A DNA stretch of 64,000 nucleotides, taken from positions 14,025,580 through 14,089,579 of the forward strand of contig OZ316894.1 of NCBI GenBank assembly GCA_973895155.1, written 5' to 3'. The DNA comes from Marsupella aquatica (Eukaryota > Plantae > Marchantiophyta). Each line of letters begins with the position of its first letter. The stretch's first letter is position 1. The notes beneath the pieces were generated by a model. The model searched no databases, was not told the DNA's origin, and saw only the letters and a program-made list of their open reading frames with translations. Below are positions 8,515 through 30,709 of the stretch, in pieces. The position numbers and the translations under genes were made by a program.

Positions 8515-8953
8515 TGTTGGATATTTACTCTTATGTCTAGGTTAGGTATGACATGGTTGGTACAACAACGTGGGTTGGTACAACAACATGGTTTGGTACA
8601 ACTACATGGTTAGGTACAACTACATGATTAGGTACAACAATGTGGTTAGGTACAACTACGTGATTAGGTACAACAATGTGGTTAGGTTAACTAAGTTGCA
8701 CACTATATCATAAGAGGCACGTGTGCTTGGAGATGTAGAACCAAGGCTCATTATTATGGAGCCACTTGAGAGATAGGGAGAGCTTACACTGTGGAGACTC
8801 GATATAGCCGACGGGCTTAGAGTTCAGTAAAGCTCTCTTGTGTGTTCTCGTGGACGTAGCCTGAAGGAGGTGAACCACGTATCTCTTGTGTCGACTACTT
8901 GCATGTTGGATATGTTATGTGCTTATCGTTGCGATTATCGTCTATACTCAATA
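8515..8953 (+). repeat. 5' LTR of the copia element
   Basis: TGTTGG...CTCAATA. About 15 differences (hand count) from the 3' LTR. Contains 7 copies of an 18-bp GGTACAAC-containing unit (about 8559-8684). Confidence 0.95.
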
Positions 8954-8955
8954 AT

Positions 8956-8967
8956 TGGTATCAGAGC
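8956..8967 (+). promoter_or_regulatory. Primer binding site complementary to initiator tRNA-Met
   Basis: TGGTATCAGAGC lies 2 bp after the 5' LTR. Confidence 0.95.
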
Positions 8968-9702
8968 ATGCCTGGGAGGTGACGTGTGTTCGTGACGGGA
9001 TTTCGTGACGGTTTTTTCCAGCGTTGAGTGTTGGTGGATTTCCCGGAGTTCCGTCGCATGAAACTTGGAGTTTATGGGCTCAACGGATAGATCAGGGCAA
9101 GGGCTTTCTAACGGTGTGAAGAAATCGCTGAACGAAGCTCGTGGTGCGGAGAGATCTAAGTTTTTATCGTTCTGGATTTTGTTAAGAAAGTCGGCAACAT
9201 TCGTGTTCGACGGTTTTTCGGAGGAGGGACCAGAGTTTGTTTTCTCGACGGTGTGAGCTCTACAGTGAAGAAAGCGTTGCATGTTATAGCTCCATTTGTA
9301 GATCGGGACGAGCTGATCATTTCGGTAGCTGGTTTGTTGCCGAGTGTGTAACGAGTACGTCACAACGAGCAAAAGAAGCGTTCTGACTTTTTAACCGGCT
9401 ATGGAGTCTTCTTTTGCCTGAGCGGGGTTTCTTGTTGTTGCAATCGACTCGGAGGGAGAAGCGTCAAGTGTTTTGACTCAACGGAGAGATTGAGGCAAGA
9501 CAATTGTTTTGAGTCCGGGATTGGCTCTTGATGCGAAGAGGAAGGCTAAGAAAAATCATTTACCTTGTTGGACTTGGTGACGGCACCGAGTGCAATTCAT
9601 CAACATTCGTTGTTGACAAGCATTGGAAAACTAGGCTCGTGGGCTACGTGGCAATGATAACCTTTGAGTTTTTTGAGAAGTTAAGAAAAACATCATTTTT
9701 TC

Positions 9703-10692
9703 TTGATTTCTCACATGAGTGACTTGGAGGAGGGTTCTATTGAGTCACCGGAGAGAACAGAGGAGGAAGCAGAAGATCTAGCGGAATTGTGGTCACCGGT
9801 ATTGCGGCGAGTGACAAGAAAAAGGATGGGGATAATCAAGCTTGGAGGTCCCAAGTTTGAGGTTACAAAATACGATGGCCGCATGGACTACTTGTTGTGG
9901 GAGCGACAAGTGAAGGGGGTACTCCGGGCGACCGGGCTTGGGAAATTGCTGAAGGACCAGCCAAATGATGTCGACAATGATGATTGGCAGGACATGCAGG
10001 AGCAAGCTGTGAGCACCGTGATGCTCTATCTTCAACCTAATGTCATCAAGCAATTGGCAGACCATGTCAATTGTGCATCATTGTTTGCCGCGTTGGAGCA
10101 AAAGTACCATCAAAAGGAGCTATCGAATCGGCTCTACACATCTTTGAAGCTTATGAGCTTCAAGATGAAGCAGGGAAGTGCAAAGATTCAGGATCATATC
10201 GATGGTTTCAACGACCTGGTCGTTGATTTGCAAAATCTGGGGGAGGATTTGAGTGATGAGCGGCAGGCTCTTCACTTGCTTAGCTCTTTATCCTTGTCGT
10301 ATCAGTCATTGTCACGAGTGCTGCTTCATCGTGATAGGAAGACTATCACTTACAATGAAGTTGTAAGTGCTCTGTTGACTGATGACTTGCAGCAGAAATT
10401 GACCATGCCCTCTCAGCCATCATCGTCGTCTGGTGCTGCCTTGAATGTGAATCGTGGGAGGTCACAGAAGCATCCAGAGCACCACACGAATGGCAGGGGA
10501 AGAAGTAAATCTATGACAAGATTTGCTTCAAGGGGGAAGTCCCAAGAGAGGAAGTCGGTGGTATGCTGGAAGTGTGGCAAGACTGGCCACATTAAGAGGG
10601 ATTGTAAGGGTAAGGCAGCTGAATCTCCATCAGCCAATGTGGCTAGTGTTGATGGAGAAGTTGATTTACTCAACGATGAGTATGTTTTATGA
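9703..10692 (+). CDS. Copia gag ORF
   Basis: KFEVTKYDGRMDYLLW start motif, Retrotran_gag_2-like core, and a CCHC zinc knuckle CWKCGKTGHIKRDC. The exact start codon is uncertain. Confidence 0.92.
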   Translation: MISHMSDLEEGSIESPERTEEEAEDLAELWSPVLRRVTRKRMGIIKLGGPKFEVTKYDGRMDYLLWERQVKGVLRATGLGKLLKDQPNDVDNDDWQDMQEQAVSTVMLYLQPNVIKQLADHVNCASLFAALEQKYHQKELSNRLYTSLKLMSFKMKQGSAKIQDHIDGFNDLVVDLQNLGEDLSDERQALHLLSSLSLSYQSLSRVLLHRDRKTITYNEVVSALLTDDLQQKLTMPSQPSSSSGAALNVNRGRSQKHPEHHTNGRGRSKSMTRFASRGKSQERKSVVCWKCGKTGHIKRDCKGKAAESPSANVASVDGEVDLLNDEYVL

Positions 10693-10985
10693 AGTCAGGA
10701 GTATGCCCTGTGCACATCATCTAGGAGAGCAAATGATGTGTGGATTTTTGATTGTGCTTGCTCCTTTCACATTTGTTACATTCGCGAGTATTTCAATTCT
10801 TATTCTGTGTCAAACGGTTCAGTTTTGATGGGAAATGATCACTCTTGTCAAGTTGAGGGTATTGGGTCTGTAAAGATTTAAATGTTTGATGGCATTGTGC
10901 GCACAGTGTCCGGAGTCAGGTTCGTACCTGGCATGCGTAAGAATTTGATTTCACTCGGTGTGTTGGATACAAATGGTCATCAATG
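10693..10985 (+). pseudogene. Copia aspartic protease region, 5' of the CACTA insertion
   Basis: In frame after the gag TGA: WIFDCACSFHIC...MGNDHSCQVEGIGSVKI*MFDGIVRTVSGVRFVPGMRKNLISLGVLD. Contains an internal TAA. Confidence 0.9.
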
Positions 10986-13900
10986 CACTAGTAGAAACCG
11001 GGGCAATTTAGACCATACCTTATAGGACTATGCCCACTAAGTCCTTTTTCCATACTTAAAACGACTCGCACCCATTGCACCGGTTTTGTTGAAGACTAGA
11101 AAAGACTATGAGAGTTTTATGGTTCACTAAAAGACTATGAGAAGTAACCTTGCTACTTTGTGAAGGGTGAATAGTCTAGCACATCATGGGTAATGTTCAC
11201 TCTATGTTGAGGAGGGGTAATTCTCCTTCATCTTTGAGCCGAAAGCACCGACGTCTATCGAGTGCCAAAGAACTGCTGGAGATCGAGCGAATTCACACTC
11301 TCAGATGTGGGTCGTGTCAAATTGTTTCCTCCATTGATGGCAGCCTTCTGTGAGATTGATTTATACTGTGTGGCTATCTGGGAGTTTTGTCGACTCATTT
11401 GACACCGATACTCCCGTGATTTCCTCATACATAGTGCCACTGCCCCCCCCGCATTGTGTTCAATCCCTATAGCTTATAGCTGCACCACTCTTGGTGGCCC
11501 TTGCTCATGCCTTGGTTTTTTTTTCTTTTTCCCATTACAGTATACACCCCCTTCTTACTAATCAGGTGGATTAATTTAGTACTAGACAATGCTTTGACAC
11601 TTTACACTTACACTATGCTGACCTACTGCGCCTTCTAGTGCTTATTCCCTAGTTGTTACTTGTTGCATGGACCACTAGAAGAACGGCTTCGCAATCTTTG
11701 CCTGATCTGATGACCCTGGTTGAGTAACTCTTTGTTATTGCCTCCTTTGGGTGTTGAGGTTTTATGATGCCATTTGGCCTACTGGTTCCCCCATCCGTGG
11801 GGTTCACGCGGAATAAATGTAAAATTTCAAACAAATAAATAAATCTATAAAGAGGGTGATAGCAAGGGGCATAACTCATTAAATGTCCTTATTTGTGACC
11901 AAAAAGGTTTTGGGTTTAATGAAGTGGGGTTCATGGAGGTTGGACCATGGAGGGATGGTCAAGATATTCTTGGCCATTACTAAATCCATCTATAAAAGGT
12001 CAAGATGCACAAAGGTAGATTTGTACCGGTCCTTTTTCATACATTAGAGCTAGGTCACATTCTTGCACCGGGAATATTGCATTTTAGGACCGGATATAAT
12101 GTTGGGCAACCTTAATCCTGATTACGTCGTGCAATAAAATGTCACTACCGACCATGTATGTGCAAATATGACCATTCATTGCCTAAGTTGGCCATGCAGT
12201 AACACTTTGTAGCTTTGTCCCACTTTGGGTGACACTCAACGGCTCACTCAAACGGTAAGGCTGAGTGGCTTCCCCTAATTCGGTTTCAGGCACTAAACTT
12301 CACTTTGGGAGTCTCTTTGGAGTTTTCGCCATTGTCATTGAACTTAGAACGTGAGGGGTGGAGTGTTCGGGGTTTTACGTAGGGTTTTCCTTTCAGTGTT
12401 GCCCACTTTTTGCGACCATTGCGGAGTGAACTTCCCGCGCGTTATGTGCTTGTTTATGCTCTCGAGGAGCAGTGTTCAGGCAGTTGCAGTGATCTAACCT
12501 TGCGCTTGCAGTCTACTCATAGACCTGCATTCCTGCTCGATCTCCTTTAGGGACATTTAGTTTTTGGCTGGTAGGGCGAAGAAGGTTGTGGCTGTTGCAA
12601 CGTTCGTGAGGAGCTTGTCGGAGTTTGAGGAGTCGGAGGTTGGGGTTTCTTCAAGGTTTTGGGTGACAATCTCGGTCACAGTTGTGGTATAGACCCTTTT
12701 GCTGCACCCATAACGAGCATCGGGAGGCCGTGAGGCTCATTGGGAGGTCCTTCAGTTGTCAAGCTGCCGTTGAGCTGGTGAAGTTGCATGCGGGTTGCAT
12801 CTATTCTGCGTACACAGTCAATGTGGGAATCCATATTTTCATAGTGCTTGTTCTTGCAAACTGGGAGCCGAGAGTTTGGAGTCGGGAGCTAAGAAGGGTA
12901 TTGTTAGGCTTCAATTACTCTGTGGTTTTCTCCAGCTCCATGGTACAGTTTCAATGTTAATGCTTTGTCCTTGTGCTGGTCTAGGTAGCGCGAGCTTCTA
13001 CCTATTGCGCCCTCTTGCTGTAAGCGTATTGAGCTGCCAACTGAGTGATTCATACCTATAGCTGCTTACGCGTGATCAAGAGATTGAACAAATGCCTAGT
13101 GCTGTCCAGCAGGAGAAAACTCTTTTTGGTCACGATCGGGTGTTGGAATATAACTAAGTGCGGCAGAGCAACACGGGGAGCTGTAGAGTTGCAGACAAGA
13201 TGCAACTACAGAGGAGGCATTGGGAAGGACACAACGGTGTGGTGAAGGTACAAGGACCGTGGACCCTAACTTGTTTGCTGCCTTGGGAGGATCCGGAGAG
13301 CCCGAGGCGACATGCTTCATTGAGCCTGAGCTAGCTGAATCCAATCCAGGAGTTGTTGCGCTAAGGTGAGACTTTGAGTTTAGGGTTGCTTCAGTGTCCG
13401 AGTAGGTTTTCTCTTTGCGTCGGCAGCTAGAAGGTAAGCTCGGGGGCTTTACAAAGGGTTAGTGTTGCGGACTTTCCCTCCTGGACGTTGTGTGTCTTCA
13501 TTTGCAACTTGTTTGTGGACCTGTGATCCTGAGACTGTCAAAATTGTTGTGGCCGCACTGACAACTTGATGACGCGTTTTGTGGATGCACCGTTAGTAAT
13601 CGCGAGTACAGCTCTCCAACAATTGCACTTACCATTTTTGACCACCTTGCATGATGTCCATCCGTGGGCTGGACCCCAAGAAGTAGATTTCGGTAGATTT
13701 CGGTAGATTTTGTCTCTGCCCCCGGTCCTCATTTTGTGCAATGTCCGCCTGGCACTTGGTTCTTGATCCCTACATTATCGTCTGTCGCTCGGCTGCTTGC
13801 GGAAGGGATCAAACAGATTGGAGGTGCTTGGTCTTTTCATTTTGAGTGTCAGAGTTTAGGAGGACAGCTTGCACCATCGCCGACAAGAATGACCTGCTTG

Positions 13901-15381
13901 CAGAACAAGAGGGACGAGCGTGAGCTGCTTGCAGAATAGGAGATTGACCGCGAGCACAAGCTGCTTGAAAAATAGGAGACTGAGGGCAACCTGCTTCTTT
14001 GTTGCTACTCTGGTTGCGCTGCTACATTGGTTGTTGATCTTCACCCACCCACTTGCCTACTCAATTGACAGAGTACAGCTTTGTCTCTGCGTGTGTTATT
14101 GCTGTCTTTGTCCCTCCCCTTGACATTGTGGGCCTTAAAAGGTCAGTAAGTTGGCTTATGTAGTTTTTATGTCCCTCCGCTATGTCAATGCGTGTTTCAT
14201 TGCATCAGGGCATCAGTCGCTGTTTGCCTATAACCGGACTGTTCATTCTCTGTCCACTCATTTGATGTAATTCTTCCCATTGCCGCCCAATGCTATGGCG
14301 CCCATGCTACAATTTGTGGTTTTTGTCTAAGCACAAATCCTCTCTGTGCCTGGTCTCTGTGTCCCGTCATTTGGATTGATTGTGTAGACGTTTCCTCTTC
14401 TCCCAGTCCTTGTCATCCACCAGCCAAAGCACATTGGATTGTTTTCAAAGGAGGGCTGTGTAGTTTGGAGGGTTTGATCTATGCAGCGGATTTGAGCAGA
14501 TTGGCGGTTGTTAGTTTCTTCTTGTAAAACCTGTCTGTCTTTTCTGCTTTTGGCCATGCTCCTTCACTTCTTGCTGCAAGCTCAATGTGCTTCAGCTATG
14601 GCAATATTCACTTACCCTATCCCAACGGCACTACCGTGAGCTGTAGGACAGCCAACAGAAGCAGATTGTATCGATTGCATGTAAGTCAGGGTATTTTATG
14701 TATTGCGGAACAACTGTCCAAGTTTGCTGCAATGGCCGGTCTTGCGCAGCTGAATGAGCCAATTTCATTTTCCCTGTGCACTTCTATTTCTCAAAGAATT
14801 CCCTGGTCATGCTCATTTCCCCCAGAGTTAGAAAACAAAGAAGAAGAGCTGACTAATTGTAATTCCAATCCATATCCTGATCGGTCAAGGATTGTTCACT
14901 ACATTGGCCTTGTCATTGGCCGAGGTCACCAAATTTTGCTTGGTTTCATTCCTGTGGAGCACTGCTGTGATGGATTTGTCGTAGCATTCTGCAAACTCTC
15001 ACGGTTTGCTTATGGCCATTATTTGCAATTTGCTGCTACTAATATGTCTTCTTCTGAGCAGCATACACCAGAAGTAAGCAATAGTGGAGGTTTAACTGCA
15101 CATCAACACATCTAGTGAACTACCTCTCTGCTGCTCACTGGAGGGTGAGACTTTCACTCTTTCTGGATATTGTAGTTTGTAAGCAAGTTGATTAGGAGTG
15201 TTTCATGCTATGTTTACACTGTGACCCCTAGCTGGAACCAATGGAATGACACAGTGAGTGGGAACTGATAATTTAAGGTTGGTTGCTGTTGGTGAGGCAA
15301 GTACAGCTCCTGCTCACCTTGCTGATCGAAGGTGCTTATCAGAGGACGTGAACACACGACATCTCCACAAAAGCAACACTT

Positions 15382-15831
15382 ATGGTGAGGACCCGCAACG
15401 CTGAACATGTGCGGCTTGCACGCAAGGCAGAGATGTTGCGCCTTGAGTATGTCAGACTTGGGATCCTTCCAGCCCAGTCTGCATGGTACTTTGAGTACCC
15501 AGTTGTTGCCAGGAACAACTACAGCCGGCCTGTACCTGCTTCTCCACCCTTCCCAACATCCTTGGTATTTCTGTCTCTCATACATGACCCACCACAAATT
15601 AGGGCCCAAGGGTGTGTGCACAGTTGCCAATATGACTGTCCTGCCTGTAGGGCTTCTGGCCTAGAGTTGGATGACCGTTCTCTTGGATGTCGGTTTTTTC
15701 ACAGAGCACGATGTATCATCTGGAACCACTCGCCATCCTGCAGTGTGCCTGGCGATGTCACTTGTCCTGCCCTCCCAGACCCCACCACCGGTCACTTTGG
15801 TGTCTACACATGTTTGGATCACACGCTCTAG
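15382..15831 (+). CDS. Orphan Cys/His/Pro-rich 149-aa protein (CACTA cargo ORF A)
   Basis: Intact ATG-TAG ORF of the same length in element 2 (52031-52480), 138/149 aa identical. Hand count gives about 12 synonymous and 13 non-synonymous changes. Motifs include CxHxCxxxCxxC. No family recognised. Confidence 0.6.
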   Translation: MVRTRNAEHVRLARKAEMLRLEYVRLGILPAQSAWYFEYPVVARNNYSRPVPASPPFPTSLVFLSLIHDPPQIRAQGCVHSCQYDCPACRASGLELDDRSLGCRFFHRARCIIWNHSPSCSVPGDVTCPALPDPTTGHFGVYTCLDHTL

Positions 15832-16500
15832 AGGACCACTTGTCACACCGCATGCACAAACCAGAGACCATTGACCTATAACTTAACACTTTGACTTGAA
15901 CAGAGAGGATATTTACTTAAGATTTTGAATTATGACCAATTTTGGGTCCAGGGTTTAGGGTCAACAGTACATAACTTATCCTATTATGGCTGCACTAAGT
16001 ACAATATCCTAATTTAAGAGGCTAGCAAGCTCACTTAAAAGTCTCCTTTCAAAGACTGGAATTAATGGGCCATGTGATAACCTGGAAAAAGTGATTTATG
16101 CCTAACTTATTTGTCTCATTCACTATCATAGCCTATTTAGGATGTATAAATTACAACCCTGATCACAGTGCTTGATACCAATCCTGTTCAAAAAATGCCT
16201 GTTTTACATGTCACGATTGTTATATGTGATTCAAATGCATTAAATCTTGTTGCAGATCTCCTTTGGTGAATCATAGCCACAAAATTGAGGTGTAGGTGGA
16301 GCTATTGTACGAGGGGATCAGTTTTTAGTGTGGGCTCAACAAACCAAAAAGTATGTCTACTCTGCACATGTGTGTGAACATTTCATTGCAGTAGCAATTG
16401 CCACTCTAGTCTATATGCTACATTGTACTTTTTGTACACTGCACTAAATTGTATTGTCCGTGCACTCTGCTAAATTGTACTATCTGTCTCATGCGTAGGC

Positions 16501-17181
16501 ATGGCACGCCCTAAAATCCGAGCCAAGAAGCGGGGGACAGAGGTGAGCAACACAGGTGTAGTTGGGCCAGATGGTAGTAACTTCTCCGCAAGTCAGATTT
16601 TCCAGAAGGCAGCTCATTGTTGTGCCATTTGTGACGATGGTGGTGGCTTAGCCATATGTGAGGGCCCTTGCATGAGGCATTTCCACCTCAACCCAGAGTC
16701 TGACCTTGCTGCAGAAAACAACTGTCCAGGGGTGGGCCTCCCGTCAGTACACCAGGGAGGCTGGATGTGCACTGATTGTTTGGAGAAGCAGGCTAAGTGT
16801 GCACAGTGTGGGAAGTTGGGGTCTTATGAGGGCTCTGTTGATGCTCCACCACTTGTTAGGAAATGCCCTGACAGATATTGTGTGAGGTTCTTTTGTTTTT
16901 CATGTTTGCCCGATCTTGCCACAGCTTGCCCACTTCATAAGTGCAAGGCATGTGGTCAGCACGATGAAGATTTCTGGGTGGACATAGTCCACTGTGTTAG
17001 GTGTCCCACCATGTGGCACTTTCATTGTTTGAAGGAGCGTCAAGCAGAAGGCTATGCTTGTGACAGACACATCTATCATCACTCTGCACATGGTGTTGAT
17101 CGATGGATCTTCTATTGTCATCGCCATGCCATAGATCCTACTTTGCACACTCCCATGAGAGATCACATTTCTTGGCTTTGA
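16501..17181 (+). CDS. Stand-alone EDM2-like composite PHD-finger protein (CACTA cargo ORF B)
   Basis: CAICDDGGGLAICEGPCMRHFH, CTDC...CAQCGKLGS, CPLHKC, CVRCPTMWHFHCL and IFYCHRHAIDPTLHTPMRDH follow the remembered EDM2 PHD region (CAICDNGGxILCCEGxCLRSFH...CPLHKC...CRRCPKSYHRKCL...LIYCxxHEIDxxLLTPVRDH) in order. Confidence 0.9.
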   Translation: MARPKIRAKKRGTEVSNTGVVGPDGSNFSASQIFQKAAHCCAICDDGGGLAICEGPCMRHFHLNPESDLAAENNCPGVGLPSVHQGGWMCTDCLEKQAKCAQCGKLGSYEGSVDAPPLVRKCPDRYCVRFFCFSCLPDLATACPLHKCKACGQHDEDFWVDIVHCVRCPTMWHFHCLKERQAEGYACDRHIYHHSAHGVDRWIFYCHRHAIDPTLHTPMRDHISWL

Positions 17182-17781
17182 ACCTGAATAATATACATGC
17201 ATAGTGCACCTGATGTGGATACCTTGGAGATTGCAGACATTCCAATTTTGAGAAGAAGGACCTCTGTAGGAGAGGATGCTTAGGCAACAAGTACCCTAAG
17301 TTCATTACTTGTTCCTGGGTACATGCCTTCAAAAACTGCCCTTAAAAGCCTTCTAGGAACTTTTTTAACTCTGCAATCATTTTGATCACGACTTACATGA
17401 CACTGCTTAAATTAAATCAGGACTTCTCATTATGAGCATATAAGTTACAAGGCTATTTAATTTGCGAGAATTCCCTTAAAGTGTACCAACATTTTGTATT
17501 CTCATTGAATGTCTGCCCATTTACAACATCTGTATGTGGCATCACAAAACAATTGCACTTGTCACCTTCAATATTGTGAAGGCACATATTCAAACTATGA
17601 GGTGCATGCTTGCAAGTGTCTAGTACGTTTGTCCCAATATTTCTCCCGTTTGGAATCGGAGCAGAGACTCACCAGACGACTGGACTGGACCAAGTTATAA
17701 ACGCAGCATTTTAAGGGCCCTCCGATTATCAGGTGAACGCATTATCTTCCGGTCTGCAGTGATTAGGTGGCCCGTGTGTAC

Positions 17782-18630
17782 ATGGCCTCTAGGAAACGTA
17801 CAAAGGTTGACCACCCGCCTCTGTTGGCTGGAATCAAAGCCATTTTGATTCCTGGCCACTATGGGTTCACCCAAGTGAGTTGGCCAATCGTACAAAAACG
17901 ATTCTCAGAGTTCCATGGGACTGAAGTCAAGGACATCACTCCACAGACTACACATGTTGTTGCGGGGACATGGCTGGATGTGATGAACAAGTGGTCATGG
18001 TCCTTCATTGATTCTGCCATTACCAACCAAGGTCTAAAAGTAGTTGAAGTCTCTTGGCTGACCGATTCTGTTAAACATAGGTGTGTACAGAGTACTGAGC
18101 AATATGAGTTGTGGGAGAGTGAGGAGGCCACTGCAGAGGCTTTGGCTGAAAAGGAAGCCTATGAAGCAGCGGCAGAGAAACCCAACTTTGCTTCTGTCCA
18201 ATATGGACCTGTTGTCAACATAGGACACCATCCTATGCGTGCAGATGCTATATTGAATGAGCATGGCAAGGAGAGAAATACCATTATGAAGGGGTTCAGT
18301 GTGGTATTTGCAGAAGAAGGAATTGGGGAGACTAAGTGCAGACTGTACAAGTCTATAGTTGTTGAGCTAGGTGGGACAGTGGAGGAGAGTCTAACAGAAA
18401 CCTCCACTCATGTTGTAGGTCTGTCATACATGAAAATATGCAGAAAATTCTTTAAGACAACAGTGCGTGATTTTGTCATGAACAACAATCTTTGGGTGCT
18501 TTCCCCTGATTGGCTTCTGGAATCAGCAGCTAGAGGGAAGCGACAAAATGCTTGGGACTTTGATATTTTTGAGGCCTGGCCCTCCAAGATTCAGCGGAGA
18601 TGTATGCTTAGCAAAGGTGGGAGAGAGTGA
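17782..18630 (+). CDS. Tandem two-BRCT-domain protein (CACTA cargo ORF C), DNA polymerase lambda-like BRCT
   Basis: Two repeats of (L/F)xG..hydrophobic..GG/HG...THVV...W(L)xDS/ES, e.g. MKGFSVVFAEEGIG...ELGGTVEESLTETSTHVV...PDWLLES. ATG at 17782 is followed by a basic NLS-like RKRTK. Confidence 0.88.
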   Translation: MASRKRTKVDHPPLLAGIKAILIPGHYGFTQVSWPIVQKRFSEFHGTEVKDITPQTTHVVAGTWLDVMNKWSWSFIDSAITNQGLKVVEVSWLTDSVKHRCVQSTEQYELWESEEATAEALAEKEAYEAAAEKPNFASVQYGPVVNIGHHPMRADAILNEHGKERNTIMKGFSVVFAEEGIGETKCRLYKSIVVELGGTVEESLTETSTHVVGLSYMKICRKFFKTTVRDFVMNNNLWVLSPDWLLESAARGKRQNAWDFDIFEAWPSKIQRRCMLSKGGRE

Positions 18631-18806
18631 GGAGTAGGAGTCCCTCATATTTTTGTATAAAACACAATTTTGTAATAAATGTGATCCTTGAACTAACTCA
18701 TCTTGTCATGGTTGGTCGTAGTTGAAGTGATTATTGTTTCCTGCTGCGTGGGGTGTGACTGTGAATCTACTTGCTGGGCTCTGTTTGGCTGAAGACTTTG
18801 GTGGGT

Positions 18807-19340
18807 ATGCTGCCTCTTCCAGACCGTCAGGCCCTATGTAGGGTCCTCCTATGGGTTGCATCGTGCATGGCTACTGCTTGGGCTTACTTGTGTGGATTGG
18901 TAACCAGACAGAGTGTAGCTCCATCCGAGATAATGCCTGCAGACCTTGGATGTGTTGTGAATGCTGTGGTGAATGAGGATGCACAGTCGGAAGAGGACAT
19001 TTACTTTTCAGTAGATGAGTTAGACAAGCACGATGCTGTAGGTGGTTCCTTGTTGCCTGATTTGGCAGATGATATAGTTCTTACACATGTCTGGCCGAGG
19101 GTTCTTGTGGTGTCTGGCGCACAAGATATCTGCAAATATAGACTAATTAGTACCCAGTGGAGGGACTTGGTAGCAACATGTGCACCATGGAGGGCACTGC
19201 TGCCACTGCTTGTAGGCACGGATCGAAGACCACCATGGCATGAGCAGGGTTTAGACCTTGATGACTTAATATACATGCCTGAGTACCTCAGGGCTGAGTG
19301 GCATCGACAACAGGATTGGTATCCGTATTTGATGTGGTAG
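18807..19340 (+). CDS. F-box-containing protein (CACTA cargo ORF D)
   Basis: LLPDLADDIVLTHVWPRV...DICKYRLISTQWRDLV fits the F-box consensus LPxLPxDI...L.R.xVCKxWRxL. First ATG is at 18807. Confidence 0.65.
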   Translation: MLPLPDRQALCRVLLWVASCMATAWAYLCGLVTRQSVAPSEIMPADLGCVVNAVVNEDAQSEEDIYFSVDELDKHDAVGGSLLPDLADDIVLTHVWPRVLVVSGAQDICKYRLISTQWRDLVATCAPWRALLPLLVGTDRRPPWHEQGLDLDDLIYMPEYLRAEWHRQQDWYPYLMW

Positions 19341-19666
19341 TAAGATGAGGACATCTCACACCGGTCTCGCACCTGGCACCTGTGTCTATGACTATACATG
19401 ATTGGACTCTGATATGGTCATGGATGTACGTGCAGAGGCAGTACATGTGAGGACAGCGGAGGAGTTGACACCCTCAAACATTTAGGAATTTTGTCTCATT
19501 CACTTGAGAATAGGTACATGACTCAGGCACCTATATTTTTTGTTTTTTTGTTTTTTTGGAACGTTACGTATTTTGGCAAGTACAGTCGGGGGTGAAATCC
19601 TTAACAGGAAGTGTATTTTTCACTTGCATAATAAAATGACAGGGTGCTGAGTGCGTGTGTATAGTG

Positions 19667-22600
19667 ATGGCTCCAAGGTTGCCTCTTCACAACCCATTTA
19701 GGATTAGGCATCATGATTCTAAATTGTGGATGCGTGAACAAGCCCGGGCCGCCCAAGGTAGGAGTAGGAGGATGAGATGCCCATGCACACAATGCCAAGG
19801 ATTCAAGTCGTTGAGTTTGAACACTGTGCACCTTCACCTGCTGCGGCATGAAAGGCACCCTCGGTGGAGGGTTTGGAATGTACCAGCAGAAGAAGACTCC
19901 TCTGATGAAGAGTGGAGAGCTGACTTTGTGGATTCTAATACAGCTAGGCGTAGAGCCTACGTAGAGCAGGACATAGACTGTGTAGAGGATGGTCCTGGGG
20001 TCCAACATGAGAACGTGGATGACCAAGATGGAGATGCAGAGGCAGTCACTGAGGACGGTGGGATGGATGTCCCAAGAATGGTTCAAGAGATTTTTGAAGA
20101 CCTTGATGCTTTTTACGACACAGTGGAATCAGAAGAGGACAATGAACCGCAGCCACACATTGGCGACGGCCAAGCTCAACCTGACTTTGACATTGGGGAA
20201 GGTGCAGCAGAGAGGGAGTGGGTGTTTGGGGGCCCAAAACACATCAAAGAAGCTTGCATTCCTATCTACGAGGGGTCGAACTGCTCCAAGCTGGGTTTTG
20301 TCGTGTTGTTGTTGAACATCTGTGGCAATCACAATGTTCCCAATATATTTGTGACAGAGTTGTTGACCTTCCTGCGCCGAAATGTGTTACCAGATGGTAA
20401 TTCAATTCCAAAAAATATGTACGAGGCTAGGAAATTGATGTCTAACCTTGGGCTGAACTATGTGTCTATTGACGCATGCCCTGATGGGTGTGTTCTCTTT
20501 CGCAAAGAGCATGCAGATAAATTGACATGCCCTCATTGTGGTAAGGACAGGTACAAGAATGTAGGGAAATGTACACACCCTGCCAAGGTTCTTCGTCATT
20601 TTCCTCTCATTCCTAGACTACAACGTCTGTTTAGATGCCCTGCCATTTCCAAGCTGATGACATGGACTCCTGATAACAAGAGCAGTGATGGCCTGCAGTG
20701 TCACATTGGAGATTCCAACCATTGGAAATTTGTTGATGAGAGGTGGCCACAGTTTGCTACAAAGAAGCGGAACTTTCGATTTGGTCTATCACTGGATGGA
20801 ATAAACCCATTTGGAGACAAAAACAACCGTTATTCATGTTGGCCGGTTACGCTGCTAAATTACAACCTTCCCCCATGGATGACTACAAAGAGGTTTTTTG
20901 TCATGATGGTGCTGTTAATCCCTGGACCAGCTTCTGTGACCGAGCAATTCATAGATATCATGTTGGCTCCAGCAGTGGAAGAGTGGAAGACTTTGTGGAT
21001 AGAAGGGGTGTTAACCCATGATGTTCTGAAGGGGCTTCTTCGACCCAGCCCCTTTAGACTGCATGCAATTTGTTTGCTGGATATAGCAGATTACCCAGGC
21101 CATGGCATCATATCTGGACGAGTGACAAAGGGCTATGTGGGGTGCACACCATGTGGGAAAAATGTGACAAGTGAGTGGTCGCATGCCCTGCACAGTATGA
21201 AATTTCAGGGGCATAGAAGGTATCTGCCTGTTGATCATCCTTACAGGCACACACGGTCTCAAATTGCACACTTCAACAACAAAACAGAGCTTCGTGGCCC
21301 ACCACAGAGGGTCACCAGAGAGCAAGTCCTGAGGTGGGCAGCCAGGAAGGCTGATTGGGACAAGAGAAGTGCCACTGATCGAGAACCTGAGGATCCAGTG
21401 GTGAAACACGGTGTGAAAAGACAGACCTTGATGGACTTGGAGTTGGAGTACTGGAGGGTAATGTACTTAGCCTCCAGCCCCTGTATGATTGCAATTTTAG
21501 ATTGGAGCAATGGTGGATTGATGTTGGTTACAATCCTCCTATGTGGTTAATTAGTGTTTCTGTTGTTGAATTCTTTGCTTTGTGGAGTGCAGGAATTCGA
21601 GCCCAGCAAACACAATGTGGACGTCATGCACATTGAGAAAAATATTTGTGAGAGCTTGCTGAAGTTCTTGTCGGGTGAGAAAGATACAGGAGCAGTTCGA
21701 GCTGATATGCAACAGAAGGGGATTCGCCCTCACCTTTGGTTGAAGCCCCATGCAAGCAATCCCAATGTACTTCTCAAGTTCCAAGCTCCCTATGTGTGCA
21801 CACAGGATGAATGGAAGACATTCTTGTATAGATTGAGCTGTCTGAAAGTGCCCTCTGGCTATGCTGGTGCCTTCAAGAAGCATATTACAAAGAATAAACT
21901 TGGCAGTATGAAAACACATGACTACCATGTGTTGATGCAGCACATTCTGCCCCTATGCCTCAGAGGTCTCATGCAGAAACCAGTCCGTAATGTCATTCTT
22001 CGACTGTGCAATGTATTTCGCCGTATATGTGTGAAAGTGTGGGATCCCCAAGGATTGGAGCAGTTGAAGCAGGATGCTGCTTATGTCCTCTGTGACTTGG
22101 AGATATACTTCCCCCCTGCTTTCTTTGATGTTATGACTCATCTCCTAATCCATGTGGTAGAAGAGCTAGGGCAGTATGGGCCAGTCAGTACCAGAGGATG
22201 TACCCTATGGAGCGATACATGAAGTTGTTGAAAGGTCATGTGAGAACATACTACAGGCCAGAGGCTTCCATGGCATTGGGGTACATTAAGGATGAGACGT
22301 TGGGATTCCTAACAGAGTACATGGCTGGGTCTGGTGAAGCTATGACAAGAGTTTGGAAATCTGGTGAAGATGATGGAGTGAGTGGCGAGGTTGTTGAAGG
22401 TGTGGGACGTGCTGTTCAGCTGCCTGTTGCGATTCGAGACAAGGCTCATTCATATGTGCTGGCAAACACAGAGCCTATGCAACCATGGTGGAGGTGAGTG
22501 ATTGAATTGACTTGCCTTTGTTGTGATGCTTCTTGTCTGTTCCAAGGGTGATCTTAGGTTGTCATGTGTTGTTTAGACCTAACTATGCCTGTACCTCATA

Positions 22601-23366
22601 ATGCAGGGAATATGATATGCAAAAAGCTGCACACTCTGGGCAGCAGGATCCCTTCCCATAGTTCGAGCAGTGGATTCGGGTGACAATTCGAGAGCATAGT
22701 AGACATCACCCAGATATGGAGAAGGATTTGTATCTTCTATCTGTGCCACCACGATTGTCTATTCTGACCTACAAACGGATGAGAGCTTATGGAAATCATT
22801 ATCGAGTGAGGGATGAGCAGGGTGACCATTGTGTATCATATGATTGTGGTTTGATTTATGTGTTTGAGCAGAGAACCTCTGAAGAACAGAGGGGGTGGAT
22901 GAAGATGGGTTACGTGGGGGAGTTGACCGACATTTGGGTGTTGAATTATGGTAACACAAGTGTCCCAGTGATATTGATGAAGGGATCATGGGTGAAATCA
23001 GAGTGGCAGAGACCAAGGGCCACCATGAAGCGTGATCATGATGGGTTCTTGTTGGCCAATTTTAGGTCCAGAGTACCAGAATGGTCTGAGCCTTTTGTTT
23101 TCCCTAGCCAAGTTGAACAGGCTTTCTTTGCAGATGTGGAGGAGTCACATGGCTGGAGGGTGGTATGCCATAGCCAAGCACGGAACAGGCGGATGGATGG
23201 AAGTAAAGTAGAGTTCAGTTTGGATGACCATGCTGCATTCGAGCATCCTAGTCATGAGACTGTACTTCCAACTCGGGCAGGGACTGACTACATCCCCTTA
23301 ACATTGAGAGAGACATATGATGAACCTGGGCAAATGGAATATGATGAGGTTGATGATTTGCAATAG
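19667..23366 (+). pseudogene. CACTA transposase (TnpD/Tnp2: Transposase_21, DUF4218, DUF4216) of element 1; exons about 19667-21457, 21593-22493, 22607-23366
   Basis: Motifs RCPCTQC, IDACPDGCVLF, LSLDGINPF, YNLPPW, DVMHIEKN, MKTHDYH, FPPAFFDVMTHL and YPMERYM. There is a 1-bp deletion near 22195 (STR-WMYP) and an in-frame TAG at 22659-22661. Confidence 0.93.
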
Positions 23367-23539
23367 GCAACAGCTGGCGATTGGCAAGTATGAGGTTGAG
23401 GATGACTACCTGCACAGAGTCACATAACGGGAATTGCTGCCTGGAATGATGTTTAGGATAGTTGGATATGCATGAAATTGATTGATACTTTGAATTTAGT
23501 GTGCTGATTCTCCCTGTTTGGTTGTGGGTGCTGTGCAGA

Positions 23540-26500
23540 AGCTATGGGGGAAGAGGGTGATGACATGGAGACAGACATGGGGCTTGGAGAGTGGGGTGAA
23601 GAGGAAAGATTGGATATGGATGGAGACCCAGATGCAGGGGGCTCACAGAAAAATGCACCTGTGCAAGATGCACAGGGCCCTCATCAAGTCCCAGGTAGGT
23701 GGGCAGCTAGAGAGAAATCACATAATCCATACCCTAGAAGGAGCCAGAGTTATTGGCAAGGGACGCCTGATAATTATGATGATGACTATGATGGAGCAGA
23801 AGATGGATGGGATGAATATGAACACCCAGAGCGTGGTAGAGACGGGTACAGAGGGCAATGGAAAGGTGAGGAGGATGATTGGACAAGTAAGTGCCTTGTG
23901 CTAGTGATTTTGTGATGGTAGTAGAGATTTAGCTCAATATGCACTTATCTGATGTGTAGCTAGGGCAAAGAGTTTATCTTACAGGTCCATGAGTGTGGCA
24001 TGTACCTGTTGGTATGCAGACTCTGATTGGGACAATCACGAAAACAACAAAGGCCATCCACATTCAGATAGGAGGCAATCATTCACAGGCGGGAGAAACG
24101 CCCCTAATTCATCAAGACAAAGCAATAGGACAGGTGGTCCAGAACCATCTATGCGCCAAGGGAGAGGTAACTTGGTCATTGCAGAATTGCTCTGAAGTCC
24201 ACTGTATATTTGGCAGCGGGATTTATGATTCATACTTACCTAATGTAAGTGACTGTAAATGGATCCTGTAAATGTGCAGGGACTCCAGGGAGGTTTGGAC
24301 AATGCAATCCAGGCCGTGGGGGGAGATCAGGCCGTGGAGGGACCCCAGGCCGTGGGGGGACACCAGGCCGTGGAGGGACACCTAGTAGCGCTTCAGGGAG
24401 TACCAAGGCAGGAGACAGTAACAAATTTGGTAAAGTAGAAGTGAATTCCGAAGGTTGGATAACTCCCACATGTGATGGTAAGAACCGTTGGCATTCTGAC
24501 CTAAGAGGAGAAGTATTGCGTTGGTTAGATTTGAGCATTATAGAGTTTAGGAGTCAGAACAAAGCTGATTGGGCTGCTATCTGCAAGGACATTCTTGAAC
24601 GGTGGGAGTATGTTGGTAATGATGGTAAGGGCCCAGTTGAAGATTGCATATCAGATTATGCAATGAGGATTTTGAAACAAGAGAGGCATAGGTTGAAAAG
24701 GATGTGGATAGACAATGGTTCTAACAGGAGAATGCCACCACCCCCATCATTGGAACTGGATCAATGGACACGGTTAATCAAAGGGTTCATGTCGGAGGCT
24801 GGACAGAGCAAGAGTGAACTGATGTCAAATGCTCGAGGCAAAGTGAAACACCTTTCACAGGTTGGGAGAGGAAGTTATGCTCCAGTGAAAGAACAATTGG
24901 TAAGGCAGTGACATGCCTGATAGTAAGCCTCAAACTTATCATCTTGCTACCATTATTACATTTTCATTGACAATCAACACTTGGTTTCATTCATATGTAT
25001 GTTGATGTGGACTGCAGAAGAAATTGACAGGTGAAGAACCATCAGCACAAGAAGTGAGAGAGGAGTTCATGAAACAAAGGAGTGAGGTGACAAGTGTAAC
25101 TTCCAAACAGGTGATTATGTTGTAATTCTGTATGTTCTGTGACTATTTGGCCTTGAGCATCAGAAAGAAATGTAGTAGGAAGTAAGCAACCAGTTCTTGG
25201 GGACAGTTATCTGAGATATGTAAGCTGTGTTATGACAGGGAACTGTTACAACTCTCACAGAGATGTGTGAACGGTTGAAGTCATTAGAGTGTGGACTCCC
25301 TCGAGTGGAAAGTAAATTGGCTGATCGTTTGGATATTGTGGAGGCATCTATAGCGAACCTTCTTGCATCAGTGGAATCTAATTTCAAGCTTGTGATTGAA
25401 AAATTGGGTGGTTCCCAACCAAACAATGAGGGCAACATTGTACAAAGTGTGCCCTTGTTAACAAAAAAGGGAATTGGCAAATCTGACACAGGTATGGAAA
25501 TGACACCGGCCCATTGTTCATTGTGTCCTATGTTCAAATGTCAGAAGTAAGTTTTCATGAATTGAGTGAATGGTTTGAATGCAGGAAGAGTGGAGGCAGA
25601 GAAGGACCCTGTAATCAGTAAGCAGAAGGGCAAGAAGGTTGCTGAGACAGGTAACCTGCTATGATCCAATACATTACATTTGAAAAGTGCATGGAGTTTT
25701 GTGAAGCTTAAGCCGGTTGGAGGTAATCTTTTCTGTAAGAACTGGTTGGATGAACTGGGATCTGAAGTGACATCATGATTGATGTATCAGGTGATTCAAA
25801 GAGCAATAATGAAGAAGATGTGCCCAGTGCCTCAGTGACCATAGCCAAGGAGGTATCAGGTAAGCTGATGCTTTAAATTCCTCTATATGAATGTTGAGCA
25901 ACAATTCAGTGGTTAATAGATTCAACCTGAATATTGTGGTGTGTTTATTGATCAACAGAAGCAGACATGGAGCATATGGCAATGGCAAAGAAGGGGAAGA
26001 AGGCTGTTCATAATGGTAAGGAGATAGTGACAACTTTGTGGTTGGTGACATGTACATTTAGCACATGTGATGAGTGATTGACTTATGTTGGACATGACAC
26101 TGAATTGTAGTTGATGCAGAGTTGACAGACTCTCAACCAAGTGGGAGTAGGGTGAAGCGACATCGAAACTTGGGAGCAACATTGGATGCAAGTAAGATTG
26201 TAGATGCTTCAATTGAAGCAAGTACAATGTTGGCAGATACTGAGATGATGTCGCAGGGAAATCCTGCTACACAATCAGAAGTGTCAAATATGGATGCAGA
26301 TTCTTTGAAGAAGAGTGTAGCCAATTCTTGATCACCAGCACAAAACACTCGTGCCAAAGTCATGACTCGCAACCAAGGTATGAATAATGTCATGTATAAG
26401 CCACCCAGGAAAGCCAAGAAAAACAGCCAGGGTAAGGTGGAGGTGATAGCCACAGCAGAGCCAGTCCATAATCTTCTATCATGGGAGGATGACTCGCAGG

Positions 26501-26715
26501 TATGTGTGGGTACAGGCATTTTGCGACCGGATCATGCAAAATTCCATGGCAAAGTGGTCCCGGATGACCATGTAGTAGTGTTGTTGACTACAGTGATTGT
26601 ATCTGATTGTAATTTGCCATTTCCGAATAGAGACGATGATCCACCTCAGGAAATAATTGCAGATGCAGTAGGATCTCTTATGCTCTGGCCATCAGAGTGT
26701 GTTAGTCTGCAGTGA
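23540..26715 (+). CDS. Multi-exon TnpA-like (ORF2) gene of CACTA element 1; exon boundaries approximate
   Basis: Acidic/Gly-rich N-terminus, PGRGG repeats, core KNRWHSDLRGEVLRWLD...QWTRLIKGF...SELMSNARGKV...VGRG, and C-terminal FHGKVVP...LPFPNRDDDPPQ...DAVGSLMLWP. Homologous to the minus-strand gene at 60023-63814. Confidence 0.75.
24310..24381 (+). repeat. 18-bp tandem repeat x4 encoding (P/S)GRGG(T/R)
   Basis: CAGGCCGTGG(A/G)GGGA.... occurs four times. Confidence 0.9.
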
Positions 26716-27544
26716 CTGAATGCAAGTGTAGATAGCATCATGTGAATTGTGTCACATTTTGACATTGCCTTGGAAATATCCAAGAAATATTTGTACCAAT
26801 TTTTCCATTTGGTAAAGAGGATGAAGGAGACGTTGTGTGTGACATTGATATTTCTGAATTCTGTATGTATGAAACAAGTGATTGATGTCAAACTATGGCT
26901 CTATGGTGATTGTCTATGATACTTAAATCTATTTTATCATTTCAGTATTAGTGTGTATGGTATAGAGGAATACGTTGTGACCTTCTTTGTAGTCTATGAA
27001 GTTTGAATCTGTGAATTCATATTAGTGTACATGGTATAGAAGATGGATTTCTGAAACTATGTATTCTAATGTTAACATGATGAATGGTGAACTTATAGAG
27101 TGAGTTCATTCCAAGTACACAATAAAACATGAATGCAATATGTTATTTGTGCACAAGAGTGGGTTCATTCCAAGTAGTATAGTGGGGTCTTCATCACTCA
27201 TATCCAGTTGACATAAAAGACTTATACATACCCCACAAAGTATATTTAAAGACTACCCTCCATAACCTTTTTAGTCGTTCCCAACGACTCATCATCGCAG
27301 CCCATAAAAGACTAAAAACGACTCACCAAAGCTACCCACACAAAGACTAAAATAGACTGAAAATCCAGTCTATTAAACGACTTATAAACCAGTTCTATAA
27401 AGGACTCAGTTGATTATAGTAACAAAACATACGACTCGCAGTCCTATAAAGGACTAGAGTCCTTCCCAGTCGTTTCCAAGTCCTATACGGTACTGAATAG
27501 TCGTTTAATGGGGTCTAAATACCCCCCGGTTTCTACTAGTGATG

Positions 27545-30496
27545 GCAAGTAATTGATGGTGAACTTCAAGTCATGTCGGGAGAGATAGTGATTTTGAAGG
27601 GGCGCAGACAGAAGAATTTGTATGTGTTGCAGGGCAATACAGTATGTGGAGAGGCCAATGTGACCAAGTCTCACGAGGAAATGACTCAACTGTGACATTC
27701 ACGGCTAGGCCACATGAGTGAGAAGGGTTTGGCTATCTTGTAGAAGAATGGGCTCATTTCTGATTTGCAATCTTGTAAATTGGATTTCTGTGAGCATTGC
27801 ATTTTTGGAAAGCAGCATTGTCGTGCTTTCGGTGTTGGAACTCATCATTCCAAAGCGGTTCTTGAGTACATATGTGACGTGTGGGGACCATCCCCGACTC
27901 CCTCACATTCTGGAAAATTGTACTATGTATCCTTTATTGACGATTACTCAAGATTTGTATGGATTTATTTCATGACGCATAAATCTGATGTCTTGTCCAT
28001 TTTTACAAAGTGGAAGACCCAAGTAGAGAATCAGACAGGAAACACGGTTAAGTGTTTGGATACAAGGGTGAAGAGTCTAAGGTCAGACAACGGCGGGGAG
28101 TACACTTCAATAAAATTTGAAGAGTACTGTGCAGAACAGGGGATAACTCGTCATCTCACCACAGTTTATACTCCACAGCAGAATGGTGTAGCTGAGAGGC
28201 TCAATCGAACACTATTGGAGCGGTCACGGAGTATGCTGAGCCAATCAGGTTTACCACAGGAATTTTGGGCAGAAGCTGTCAATACTGCAGTTTATTTGGT
28301 AAATCTTTCTCCTTCTAGTGCAATCAATTTTAAAATGCCGTTTGAAATGCGTTATAAGCGGCAAGCAGACTATCATGGCTTGGTAGTTTTTGGAAGTGAT
28401 GCATATGCTCTCACACCAAAGCAGAATAGGACCATGTTGGATCCTACGTCCAAGAAATGTATTTTTCTTGGGTATCAGAGTGGTGTGAAGGCCTACAGGT
28501 TATGGGATCCTATTGCTTGTAAGCTCATTGTTAGTAGGGATGTTTCTTTCAATGAATCCAGATTATTGAAGGAGGGGGAGAATACTCAAGTCTCCCGTAC
28601 TGACAAAGGAAAATCTCCTATCCTGGATCTCGTTGAGGGGGAGATTGATCATGAAGTGCATGATCGGAGAGAAGGAGGTGCTCCAAGCATGGAGCTGGTT
28701 CTTGTGCTAGAGGAACAAAAGGAGTTTATTGATGCTGATGAGCAGCAAATGGATGTTGCTGAGCTTCAAATTGTACCAGTAGACGCAATTCAACCGGAGT
28801 CATCGTCTAGAAGAACATTTGGTCGTACTGTACGCGCTCCTCCTAGGTATGGACAGTGGGTTGATTCATCTCAACTGCAAGAGGATGATTTTGCAGCTGA
28901 TGATGAGGGTGATGCGTTAATTTTGGAAGAAGGGGAACCTTCTTCATTTCATGAGGCCAGTGCTTCAAAGGAGAAGCAGAAGTGGACTGCAGCAATGCAA
29001 ACGGAGATGCAGTCACTAAAGGACAACAAAACTTGGGAGCTTGTTAAGCTGCCTAAGGGTCAGCAAGTGGTGGACAACAAGTGGATTTACAAGCTGAAGA
29101 ATAATTCCACAGGAGGTGGATCAAAGGTCTACAAGGCTAGGTTGGTAGCAAAGGGATTCACACAAGAGAAAGGTGTGGATTACAATGAGGTCTTCTCACC
29201 AGTTGCTAAGTACTCTACAATACGACTATTGTGTGTACTTGTTGTAATGTTTGGTCTGTTGCTAGATTAGATGGATGTTGTCACAGCTTTCCTCTATGGC
29301 ACATTGGAAGAGGTGATCTTCATGAGACAACTGCTAGGTTTTGTGTAGAGAGGACAGGAGGAATTGGTTTGCAGATTGCTGAAATCCTTGTATGGGTTGA
29401 AGCAGTCATCAAGACAGTGGAACAAGCGGTTTGACGATTGGATTCGATCACAAGGTTTTCACAAAAGTGTATTTGACCCTTGTGTGTATTTGAAACCGGT
29501 GAAGAATATTGTCTTTGGGTTCATTGTTTTAGTACTTTATGTGGATGACATGCTTATTGCGGCCAATGATAGGTCTGAGATTGTTAAGCTTAAGGCACTG
29601 CTCAATGCAGAGTTTAAGATGAAGGACCTAGGGCCAACTAAGAGGATTTTGGGTATGGAGATCACTAGGGACTTGGAGGCTAGTAAGCTATGGTTGACAC
29701 ACAGCAGTTATGCGAGGAAGGTAATTGCTAGGTTCAACATGGGGGATAGCAAGCCAGTAAGTACCCTTTGGCTACACACTTCAAATTATCATCAGCTTTC
29801 TGTCCCACAGATGCGATAGAGAAGGGGCTGATGTCAAAGGTTCCTTATGATAAGGCAGTGGGAAGTCTCATGTATTTGATGACTTGCACTAGACCTGATC
29901 TTGCCATGGCTATGGGCAAGGTGAGTAGGTACATGTCAAATCCAAGGAAGGTACATTGGGAAGCAGTGAAGTGGATTATCAGGTACTTGAAGGGTACCGT
30001 GGATCATGGTCTTTTATTTGATGCGAATGCAAAGAATGCTAGATCATTGATTGGCTATGTAGATTCTGACTATGGACAAGATTTGGACCGAAGGAGATCA
30101 ACAACAGGATACGTGTTCACACTTGGCGGTGGATGCATAAGTTGGAGGTCTACTTTGCAGAAGTGTATTGCTCAGTCTACTACAGAAGCGGAGTATGTTG
30201 CAGCTGCGGAAGCAGCAAAGGAAGCAATTTGGTTGGATAGACTTATCACTGAAATGGGATTGCCATAGGGGAATGTGAAGCTCCATTGTGATAGTCAAAG
30301 TGCGCTCCACCTTGCTGTGAACCAGGTGATGGACAGCAGAGTGAAGCACATTGACGTCAGGGACCATTTTATCAGGCAGGGTGTGTCTGATAATTTGTTT
30401 GAGCTAGTCAAGATTGATGGTAAACTCAACCCGGCTGACGCATTTACCAAAGTGATTCCTTTGGAGAGTTTCTCTAGACATCGTGACGTATTGTAG
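27545..30496 (+). pseudogene. Copia pol (GAG-pre-integrase, integrase, RT, RNase H), with several stops and a frameshift
   Basis: HSRLGHMSE, CEHCIFGK, LRSDNGGEY, QQNGVAERLN, YKARLVAKG, LYVDDM, YVDSD, STTEAEY, KHIDVR and NPADAFTK. Stops at about 27693, 27741, 29268 and 30266, and a frameshift near 29765. Confidence 0.95.
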
Positions 30497-30699: not shown

Positions 30700-30709
30700 A
30701 AGGGGAAGA
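30700..30709 (+). promoter_or_regulatory. Polypurine tract
   Basis: AAGGGGAAGA lies immediately before the 3' LTR. Confidence 0.85.

Follow-up and report, generated by a model that had tools for sequence, protein, structure and literature searches.

What does a free-standing PHD module do inside a DNA transposon, and why has it been kept there? The question is raised by an open reading frame (ORF) at positions 16501 to 17181 of the window, i.e., of the whole 64,000-nucleotide stretch of DNA analyzed here. The first-pass annotation described its product as a transposon-borne, 226-residue protein with a basic N terminus followed only by the PHD region of EDM2. Judged from its sequence, the ORF is genuine: an EDM2-derived accessory gene, maintained by selection in CACTA elements, whose function is a prediction.

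Identity of the PHD gene

The gene is present twice in the window.

16501..17181, + strand: stand-alone EDM2/NSD-type triple-finger gene, copy 1 (ORF, Pfam, alignment, and profile match); the central finding
53253..53933, + strand: stand-alone EDM2/NSD-type triple-finger gene, copy 2 (ORF, Pfam, and alignment to copy 1)

The ORF of copy 1 was confirmed, with a product of 226 aa that starts with MARPKIRAKKR and ends in TPMRDHISWL; the stop codon lies four residues past RDH, i.e., just after the TP(M/V)RDH motif at which the protein had been said to end, in both window copies and in L001, a relative on a metagenome contig. The earlier estimate of about 33 substitutions between the copies, none at a cysteine, proved exact: the alignment is gap-free, with 193 of 226 residues identical, 33 substitutions, and none at the 22 cysteines. 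All 24 putative zinc-ligand residues, assigned by pattern, are common to both copies.

Pfam matched both copies to NSD-like PHD models (E values of 4e-5 to 2e-3, below the curated cut-offs), a profile built from 12 family members matched the NSD2/NSD3 finger cassettes in the PDB (E ∼1e-11), and the top match in the ESM Atlas (0.93) was a streptophyte PHD_NSD cluster. Alignment with EDM2-type proteins reveals three linked atypical fingers and a closing C-x2-H followed by TPxRDH; at the domain level, the cassette is therefore of the EDM2 type, with one His ligand replaced by Cys.

Both ATGs lie 2 nt 3′ of a splice-acceptor-like AG, with in-frame stops upstream, and an additional 5′ coding exon may precede them. 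A donor-like GT after codon 14 (16543 and 53295) is also conserved in both copies, and the basic leader could be spliced from it onto downstream exons.

The carrier elements

That the gene is transposon borne, as had been proposed, is borne out by the TIRs, the TSD, and an empty site in three of four sequencing runs. The features of element 1 and of the retrotransposon around it are as follows.

8515..31149, + strand: Ty1/copia LTR retrotransposon, host of the element 1 insertion (LTRs, 5-bp TSD, Pfam gag/integrase/RT)
10986..27541, + strand: complete CACTA (En/Spm) element 1, 16,556 bp (TIR, TSD, empty site, Transposase_21 at E 2e-58)
10986..11003, + strand: left TIR of element 1 (inverted-repeat pair)
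27524..27541, - strand: right TIR of element 1 (inverted-repeat pair)
15382..15831, + strand: Cys/His-rich 149-aa ORF, cargo 1 (conserved in element 2)
17782..18630, + strand: twin-BRCT gene with a basic N terminus, cargo 3 (Pfam BRCT at E 6e-14, two stretches)
18807..19340, + strand: 177-aa ORF with a weak F-box-like match (Pfam E 0.096, below cut-off)
19667..23366, + strand: transposase region of element 1, Tnp2, DUF4218, and DUF4216 (Pfam; frameshift near 22195)
24279..26714, + strand: TnpA-like (Ptta/En/Spm) coding exons of element 1 (weak Transposase_24 match, E 0.08)

Element 1 is assigned to CACTA on its TIRs (18 nt, starting with CACTA, 100% complementary), a 3-bp TSD (ATG at both sides), and a Tnp2/TnpD transposase accompanied by a weakly matching TnpA-like gene. 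In the transposase, Transposase_21 and DUF4218 scored above the cut-off and DUF4216 below it, and the frameshift near 22195 is a one-base difference of the window copy from all four runs. The TnpA-like exons are 39 to 40% identical to their counterpart in a third element, which matches Transposase_24 at E 1.5e-4.

The empty-site joint (10982>27542, with three ambiguous letters) was found in runs X1, X2, and X5, in which all 30 bins of element 1 were also covered, by 949, 14,225, and 753 contigs, respectively. By their codes, the three runs come from different organisms and different studies; the window itself may derive from one of these runs. Runs X9 and X10 yielded no more than 3 and 1 short pieces, respectively, and neither is taken as a carrier of the PHD gene. 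Run X6 has high contig depth in the PHD and transposase bins, a measure that can neither rank genes nor show linkage. The LTRs of the surrounding Copia element, which has a TSD of 5 bp, differ at 15 of 443 aligned sites, and since element 1 is inserted in it, the jump of element 1 would be recent on the Copia-LTR scale.

The second copy of the PHD gene lies in a second element.

47445..59167, + strand: CACTA element 2, from its left end to the interruption by element 3 (CACTAG start at 47445; Transposase_21 at E 7e-68)
52031..52480, + strand: 149-aa ORF, copy 2 (ORF and alignment to copy 1)
54526..55398, + strand: twin-BRCT gene, copy 2 (Pfam BRCT at E 3e-13; weak BRCA1 BRCT match at E 0.003)
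55931..59167, + strand: transposase region of element 2 (Pfam; one in-frame stop at 56852)

The transposase of element 2 breaks off at 59168, where a third CACTA end (59168 to 64000) stands in the opposite orientation and extends beyond the window.

Several further observations concern the surroundings. TnpA-like (Transposase_24) exons at 24279 to 24899 (+ strand, element 1) and 61529 to 62182 (- strand, element 3) are 40% identical; in the available text of a 2026 preprint, such proteins appear restricted to flowering plants, and the exons in the window would depart from this rule if the host were a non-flowering plant, as the nearest relatives of the PHD protein suggest. The repeats are flanked by a multi-exon host gene (36350 to 42075, - strand) and another host gene (1 to 943, - strand), which, from their translations, we take to be phospholipase D and a farnesyltransferase alpha-like gene, respectively. 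A diverged Copia LTR fragment (47001 to 47263) lies just left of element 2, an inverted repeat at 45550 to 45708 has 57-nt arms and is MITE-like, and degenerate 17- to 40-bp tandem arrays occupy 42456 to 44128.

A shared cassette of accessory genes

Elements 1 and 2 have in common the order 149-aa ORF, PHD gene, twin-BRCT gene, and Tnp2 transposase. Their left arms cannot be aligned, and the 177-aa F-box-like ORF is restricted to element 1, with a short stretch in its place in element 2. Divergence between the elements rises along the cassette, from 0.058 in the 149-aa ORF through 0.099 in the spacer to a dS of 0.30 in the PHD gene, and then from 0.37 in the next spacer through a dS of 0.54 in the BRCT gene to 1.7 or saturation in the transposase. 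Because the cassette and its spacers can be aligned while silent sites of the transposase are saturated, this gradient is most simply read as suggesting that diverged CACTA lineages have exchanged the cassette; alternatively, constraint at the nucleotide level may be unusually strong.

The 149-aa ORF is the best-conserved part of the two elements (93% identical in element 2, with 94% at the nucleotide level; dN/dS of 0.32, confidence interval [CI] of 0.12 to 0.83). It had no match in Pfam, in the ESM Atlas, or to the PHD-family profile, and a degenerate second PHD was rejected at a probability of 0.4%. On sequence features, it is a candidate new zinc-binding protein of transposable elements (TEs) or else constrained regulatory sequence. 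The twin-BRCT genes stand alone inside the CACTA elements, with one relative found (P0176, 62% identical), and their dN/dS of 0.54 indicates weaker constraint than on the PHD gene. Plant BRCA1/BARD1 are of the PHD-BRCT type, and a spliced fusion of the two cargo genes would resemble them. This fusion was not supported: in a scan that was crude and used rough donor weights, the PHD ORF has a single conserved donor-like site, the one after codon 14, and the BRCT ATG is preceded at 49 nt by a conserved acceptor-like site that is out of frame.

Purifying selection on the PHD gene

Several lines of evidence indicate that the PHD gene is not decaying. First, comparison of the two copies gave a dN of 0.079 and a dS of 0.297, i.e., a dN/dS of 0.27 (bootstrap CI of 0.16 to 0.42); the CI excludes 1, and the neutral decay that would have spoken against a function of the protein was not found. 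Second, the 681 aligned bases of the ORF contain no indels, compared with 15 events in the following 570 aligned bases of spacer. Third, the transposases carry one lesion each (the frameshift near 22195 and the stop at 56852), whereas both PHD ORFs are intact. Fourth, among 968 contigs of run X2 on the PHD ORF, no indel reached a 10% share, and among 40 of the 56 variants, 17 are silent singly, no Cys or His is altered, and 36 equal the state of copy 2. The lone apparent stop among them is one of three adjacent changes that jointly give the Glu of copy 2. The PHD gene is kept by purifying selection.

The ratio of observed to expected CpG is 0.25 to 0.26 in the PHD genes and 0.33 to 0.37 in the transposases, compared with 0.88 in a host exon. 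This depletion implies that the elements have long been methylated.

Relatives and possible donor of the module

Five short relatives were found (217 to 245 aa, 38 to 81% identity), with more among the best 150 of 238 matches. Many members of this short family start with MARPK and end in (D/N/T)HI(S/A)W(L/I), and the start and the HISW(L/I) end are retained down to 38% identity. Four short members that were looked up came from Logan, JGI, or ENA only, none being in an annotated genome. A pattern search of viral contigs gave 14 matches and no relatives, and that of metagenome contigs gave 21 matches and one relative, L001, which has the single-ORF form with 41% identity and an in-frame stop near its start; its contig, of 1.9 kb, lacks a transposase and is too short for context. 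A longer-word search returned one algal protein only. Within the family, a CACTA context is established for the two window copies alone. Four short EDM2-type PHD proteins stand outside the family (P0068, P0036, P0052, and P0057, one annotated in Marchantia and three unnamed), some of them with an independently shortened finger-2 linker.

An origin from an EDM2-type protein, which the first-pass annotation had made dependent on the best matches, held up: after the short family, these are mostly long proteins with a DNMT1-RFD and PHD fingers, one of them named EDM2-like. Identity to cellular relatives is ∼33 to 41%. In a first tree, built from 56 chosen rows among 113 extracted regions and from 7 further rows, the 12 short proteins come out as a single clade (100/99), which, with NSD-like rows included, lies on a long branch outside all EDM2-type proteins. 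In a second tree, the set with which the family groups (96/88) contains liverwort paralogues, namely those of Calypogeia, Riccia, and Marchantia; this tree has 29 rows and a simpler model, with NSD-like rows dropped after the first tree had been seen, and its grouping is a lead only. By approximately unbiased (AU) tests, a sister position of angiosperm EDM2 (P = 0.09) or of the long liverwort proteins (P = 0.23) was not rejected. Liverwort EDM2 paralogues thus appear to be the best-placed donor group, but the donor is not settled and other donors are not rejected. We infer that an EDM2-type module was captured once, long ago.

The paralogues in question (Calypogeia CAM6087769.1, Riccia KAL3685775.1, Marchantia Mp1g03210, and the PHD-only Mp4g03050) resemble the family in having the cassette at or near the C terminus, no C-terminal region of EDM2, and a flank without strong acidity. 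Of the cellular matches with a single cassette, the Calypogeia protein scores best (95.9 bits), and it has an F-S/T-x-x-E-V-N flank with the same spacing as in the family. The paralogues differ in their status as annotated host genes and in retaining the finger-2 His and the long linker. The liverwort paralogues combine a weak RFD match with the cassette and are without the region corresponding to residues ∼500 to 875 of the EDM2-like query, which is kept in long liverwort, lycophyte, fern, and algal relatives; one Marchantia member, annotated and PHD-only, has just 280 aa. As the methyltransferase-like region is already missing from the paralogues placed with the family in one tree, its loss may predate the capture, and the earlier view that the capture itself trimmed off this domain is not upheld.

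A rebuilt finger module

The first-pass annotation started from the reading of H3K9me2 by EDM2 and proposed that the module could mask H3K9me, serve as a dominant-negative decoy, or recruit read-through factors. The protein contains neither the DNMT1-RFD domain, with only 40 residues preceding the first finger, nor the C-terminal ELP methyltransferase-like domain, the stop lying four residues after RDH, and the cassette itself has been remodeled. In finger 2, a Cys replaces the His ligand and the linker is of 7 residues in 14 of 14 pattern-matching members of the 23 short proteins, whereas the His is present in 57 of 57 pattern-matching long proteins (at least 65 examined) and in 6 of 6 matching liverwort proteins, and the linker has 26 to 31 residues in 54 of the 57. 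The module of the family accordingly has a deletion of ∼20 residues relative to the EDM2 type.

The segment before finger 1 has also changed. Over the 15 residues before the first Cys, mean net charge is 0.0 in the family (n = 21 of 23) versus -7.2 in long EDM2-type proteins (n = 65). The acidic flank with its F-D motif is absent: D at position -3 occurs in 53 of 65 long proteins and in 0 of 21 family members, and the F-D pair is lost. A new motif, aromatic-x6-Q-K-x2-H, is present instead, with the aromatic residue at -13 in all 21 members, Gln at -6 in 19 of them, and His at -2 in 20. In an alignment with AIRE, this His lies opposite an acidic residue, which in AIRE is a contact for unmethylated H3K4. 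Immediately past the first Cys pair, the family retains acidic residues, as do H3-binding PHD fingers.

Since the likely histone-contact flank was rebuilt on a preserved zinc scaffold, the H3K9me2 specificity of EDM2 should not be presumed for the family, in which the acidic, aromatic finger-1 flank has been replaced. These comparisons argue that the reading surface of EDM2 as such is not preserved and that finger specificity probably differs from that of EDM2. An AlphaFold model (pLDDT of 69.5, with residues 1 to 25, 42 to 47, and 216 to 226 under 50) matched the folds of PZP domains weakly (E 1e-4, TM ∼0.2), as it did the PHDvC5HCH of NSD2 (Z of 4.1, rmsd of 2.8 over 75 residues); PDB searches returned no EDM2-named chain.

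Relation to known systems

Among named cellular proteins, the closest matches are Arabidopsis EDM2 and EDM2-like (AAE complex), with which the PHD protein shares the composite cassette including the TPxRDH end. EDM2 has in addition a DNMT1-RFD, acidic tracts, and the ELP methyltransferase-like region, all three absent here, and the PHD protein differs further in its finger-2 Cys for His, the deletion of ∼20 residues, its neutral flank, and its encoding by one uninterrupted ORF in a transposon. The NSD1/2/3 cassette and the PZP domains of JADE1, BRPF1, and AF10 are alike through the NSD2/3 profile match and the weak PZP fold matches, respectively, but NSD proteins have SET and PWWP domains, neither of which is found here, and the weak fold matches give no ligand.

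As a separate accessory gene under purifying selection within a DNA transposon, the PHD gene resembles VANC of VANDAL elements and TnpA of Spm. These are sequence-specific DNA binders of demonstrated activity, according to the available text of bioRxiv 10.64898/2026.08.24.746577, whereas the present protein is a PHD cassette that is not known to recognize particular DNA sequences. Transposons have recurrently recruited PHD-type readers (Grau-Bove et al., bioRxiv 10.1101/2021.11.30.470311), but the PHD/chromo readers described in the main text of that study are fused with TE domains, so that a free-standing PHD gene falls outside its count, and the term CACTA is absent from that text. No CACTA-borne system of PHD and BRCT genes was found in the literature searched, which did not extend to Repbase, Dfam, or subscription journals. 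Neither PHD nor BRCT appears in the main text of the preprint on 962 predicted Spm protein structures (bioRxiv 10.64898/2026.08.24.746577), whose supplements could list them, nor does PHD appear in the available text of a review of capture (PMC13317346). The PHD cargo is a variation on a known theme, the recruitment of chromatin proteins by transposons.

Predicted function and alternatives

Our leading interpretation, held tentatively and at a little under even chances, is that the gene is a selected CACTA cargo encoding an EDM2-type-derived triple zinc finger that would be nuclear, bind chromatin, and keep the element expressed against silencing. After capture of the module from an EDM2-type host gene, the basic N terminus would act as a nuclear signal for import, the fingers would engage H3 tails or nucleosomes, and the carrier element would gain by staying expressed despite host silencing. 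Because no domain for sequence-specific DNA binding is evident in the protein, it might compete broadly with host EDM2-type and H3K9me readers, or a partner, e.g., the TnpA-like protein, might bring it to the element.

Counter-silencing is ranked first on precedent. H3K9me peptides pull down EDM2 (PMC6208443), and H3K9me reading and the promotion of full-length transcripts over heterochromatin are attributed to EDM2 in the available texts of PMC6208443, PMC7472560, PMC7529245, PMC9910501, and PMC9292364. EDM2 raises COPIA4 transcript levels (available text of PMC3632883), and VANC probably originated from a captured host chromatin regulator (available text of PMC13547354). EDM2 also represses Mu1 (PMC3632883), so an EDM2-like activity need not favor the element, and since the elements have long been methylated, as their CpG depletion indicates, any protection would be partial or transient. 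Nor does the protein display a feature by which it could recognize the element that carries it.

A second possibility, unlikely but to be taken seriously, is that the cargo genes form a targeting and repair adaptor, in which the PHD protein tethers the transposition complex to repeat-rich chromatin and the BRCT protein links excision and insertion sites to repair, with no counter-silencing. The adjacency of the two genes upstream of the transposase in both elements would fit such a role, as would the nesting of element 1 in Copia and of element 3 in element 2, the strong CpG depletion expected of life in methylated chromatin, and the tethering proposed for TE-fused chromatin readers in the main text of bioRxiv 10.1101/2021.11.30.470311. 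However, the finger and transposase genes are separate, the crude donor scan revealed no in-frame splice to BRCT, and three insertion sites are too few to establish a preference.

It is improbable that the fingers no longer read histones and serve as an adaptor or decoy that binds a host or element protein, e.g., an AIPP1/EDM3-like bridge. The new conserved motif before finger 1, the His-to-Cys swap, and the 7-residue finger-2 linker are consistent with a new partner, and EDM2 and ASI1 are bridged by AIPP1 (available text of PMC7472560), but the acidic residues after the first Cys pair have been kept. Quite improbable is a cargo domesticated to the benefit of the plant, with the transposon only as its vehicle: a PHD-only, EDM2-like host gene is annotated in Marchantia (280 aa), yet both copies lie inside elements and have TE-like composition, variants are numerous among the contigs covering the element in three runs, the family includes a decayed member (L001, with its in-frame stop near the start), and all four short members looked up come from outside annotated genomes. 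A passive fragment or camouflage of the Pack-CACTA type without protein function, for which capture and siRNA camouflage are documented (available text of PMC13317346), is very improbable and largely refuted by a dN/dS well below 1, a frame, start, and stop kept down to 38% protein identity, a long branch from the cellular matches in place of a recent, neutrally decaying host fragment, and an identity to cellular relatives of ∼33 to 41% that is probably too low for siRNA cross talk.

Implications

A wider proposal is that a CACTA lineage of non-flowering plants took over the reader module of the heterochromatin read-through machinery and remade it as a free-standing counter-silencing protein, within a toolkit of three genes (Cys-rich protein, PHD reader, and twin BRCT) traded between distant CACTA families. 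This proposal of histone-reader-based anti-silencing, in contrast to the DNA-sequence-specific systems of VANC and TnpA, is speculative and on balance doubtful. At 226 aa, the naturally minimal cassette offers a handle on the structure of the EDM2 PHD region. As a small, single-ORF protein that should be easily expressed, it also makes the persistence of large DNA transposons in methylated genomes directly testable. The counter-silencing proteins VANC and TnpA, as described in the available texts, are DNA binders from flowering plants; an EDM2-derived module with this role would, if true, amount to another kind of strategy, directed at histones or the proteins that read them.
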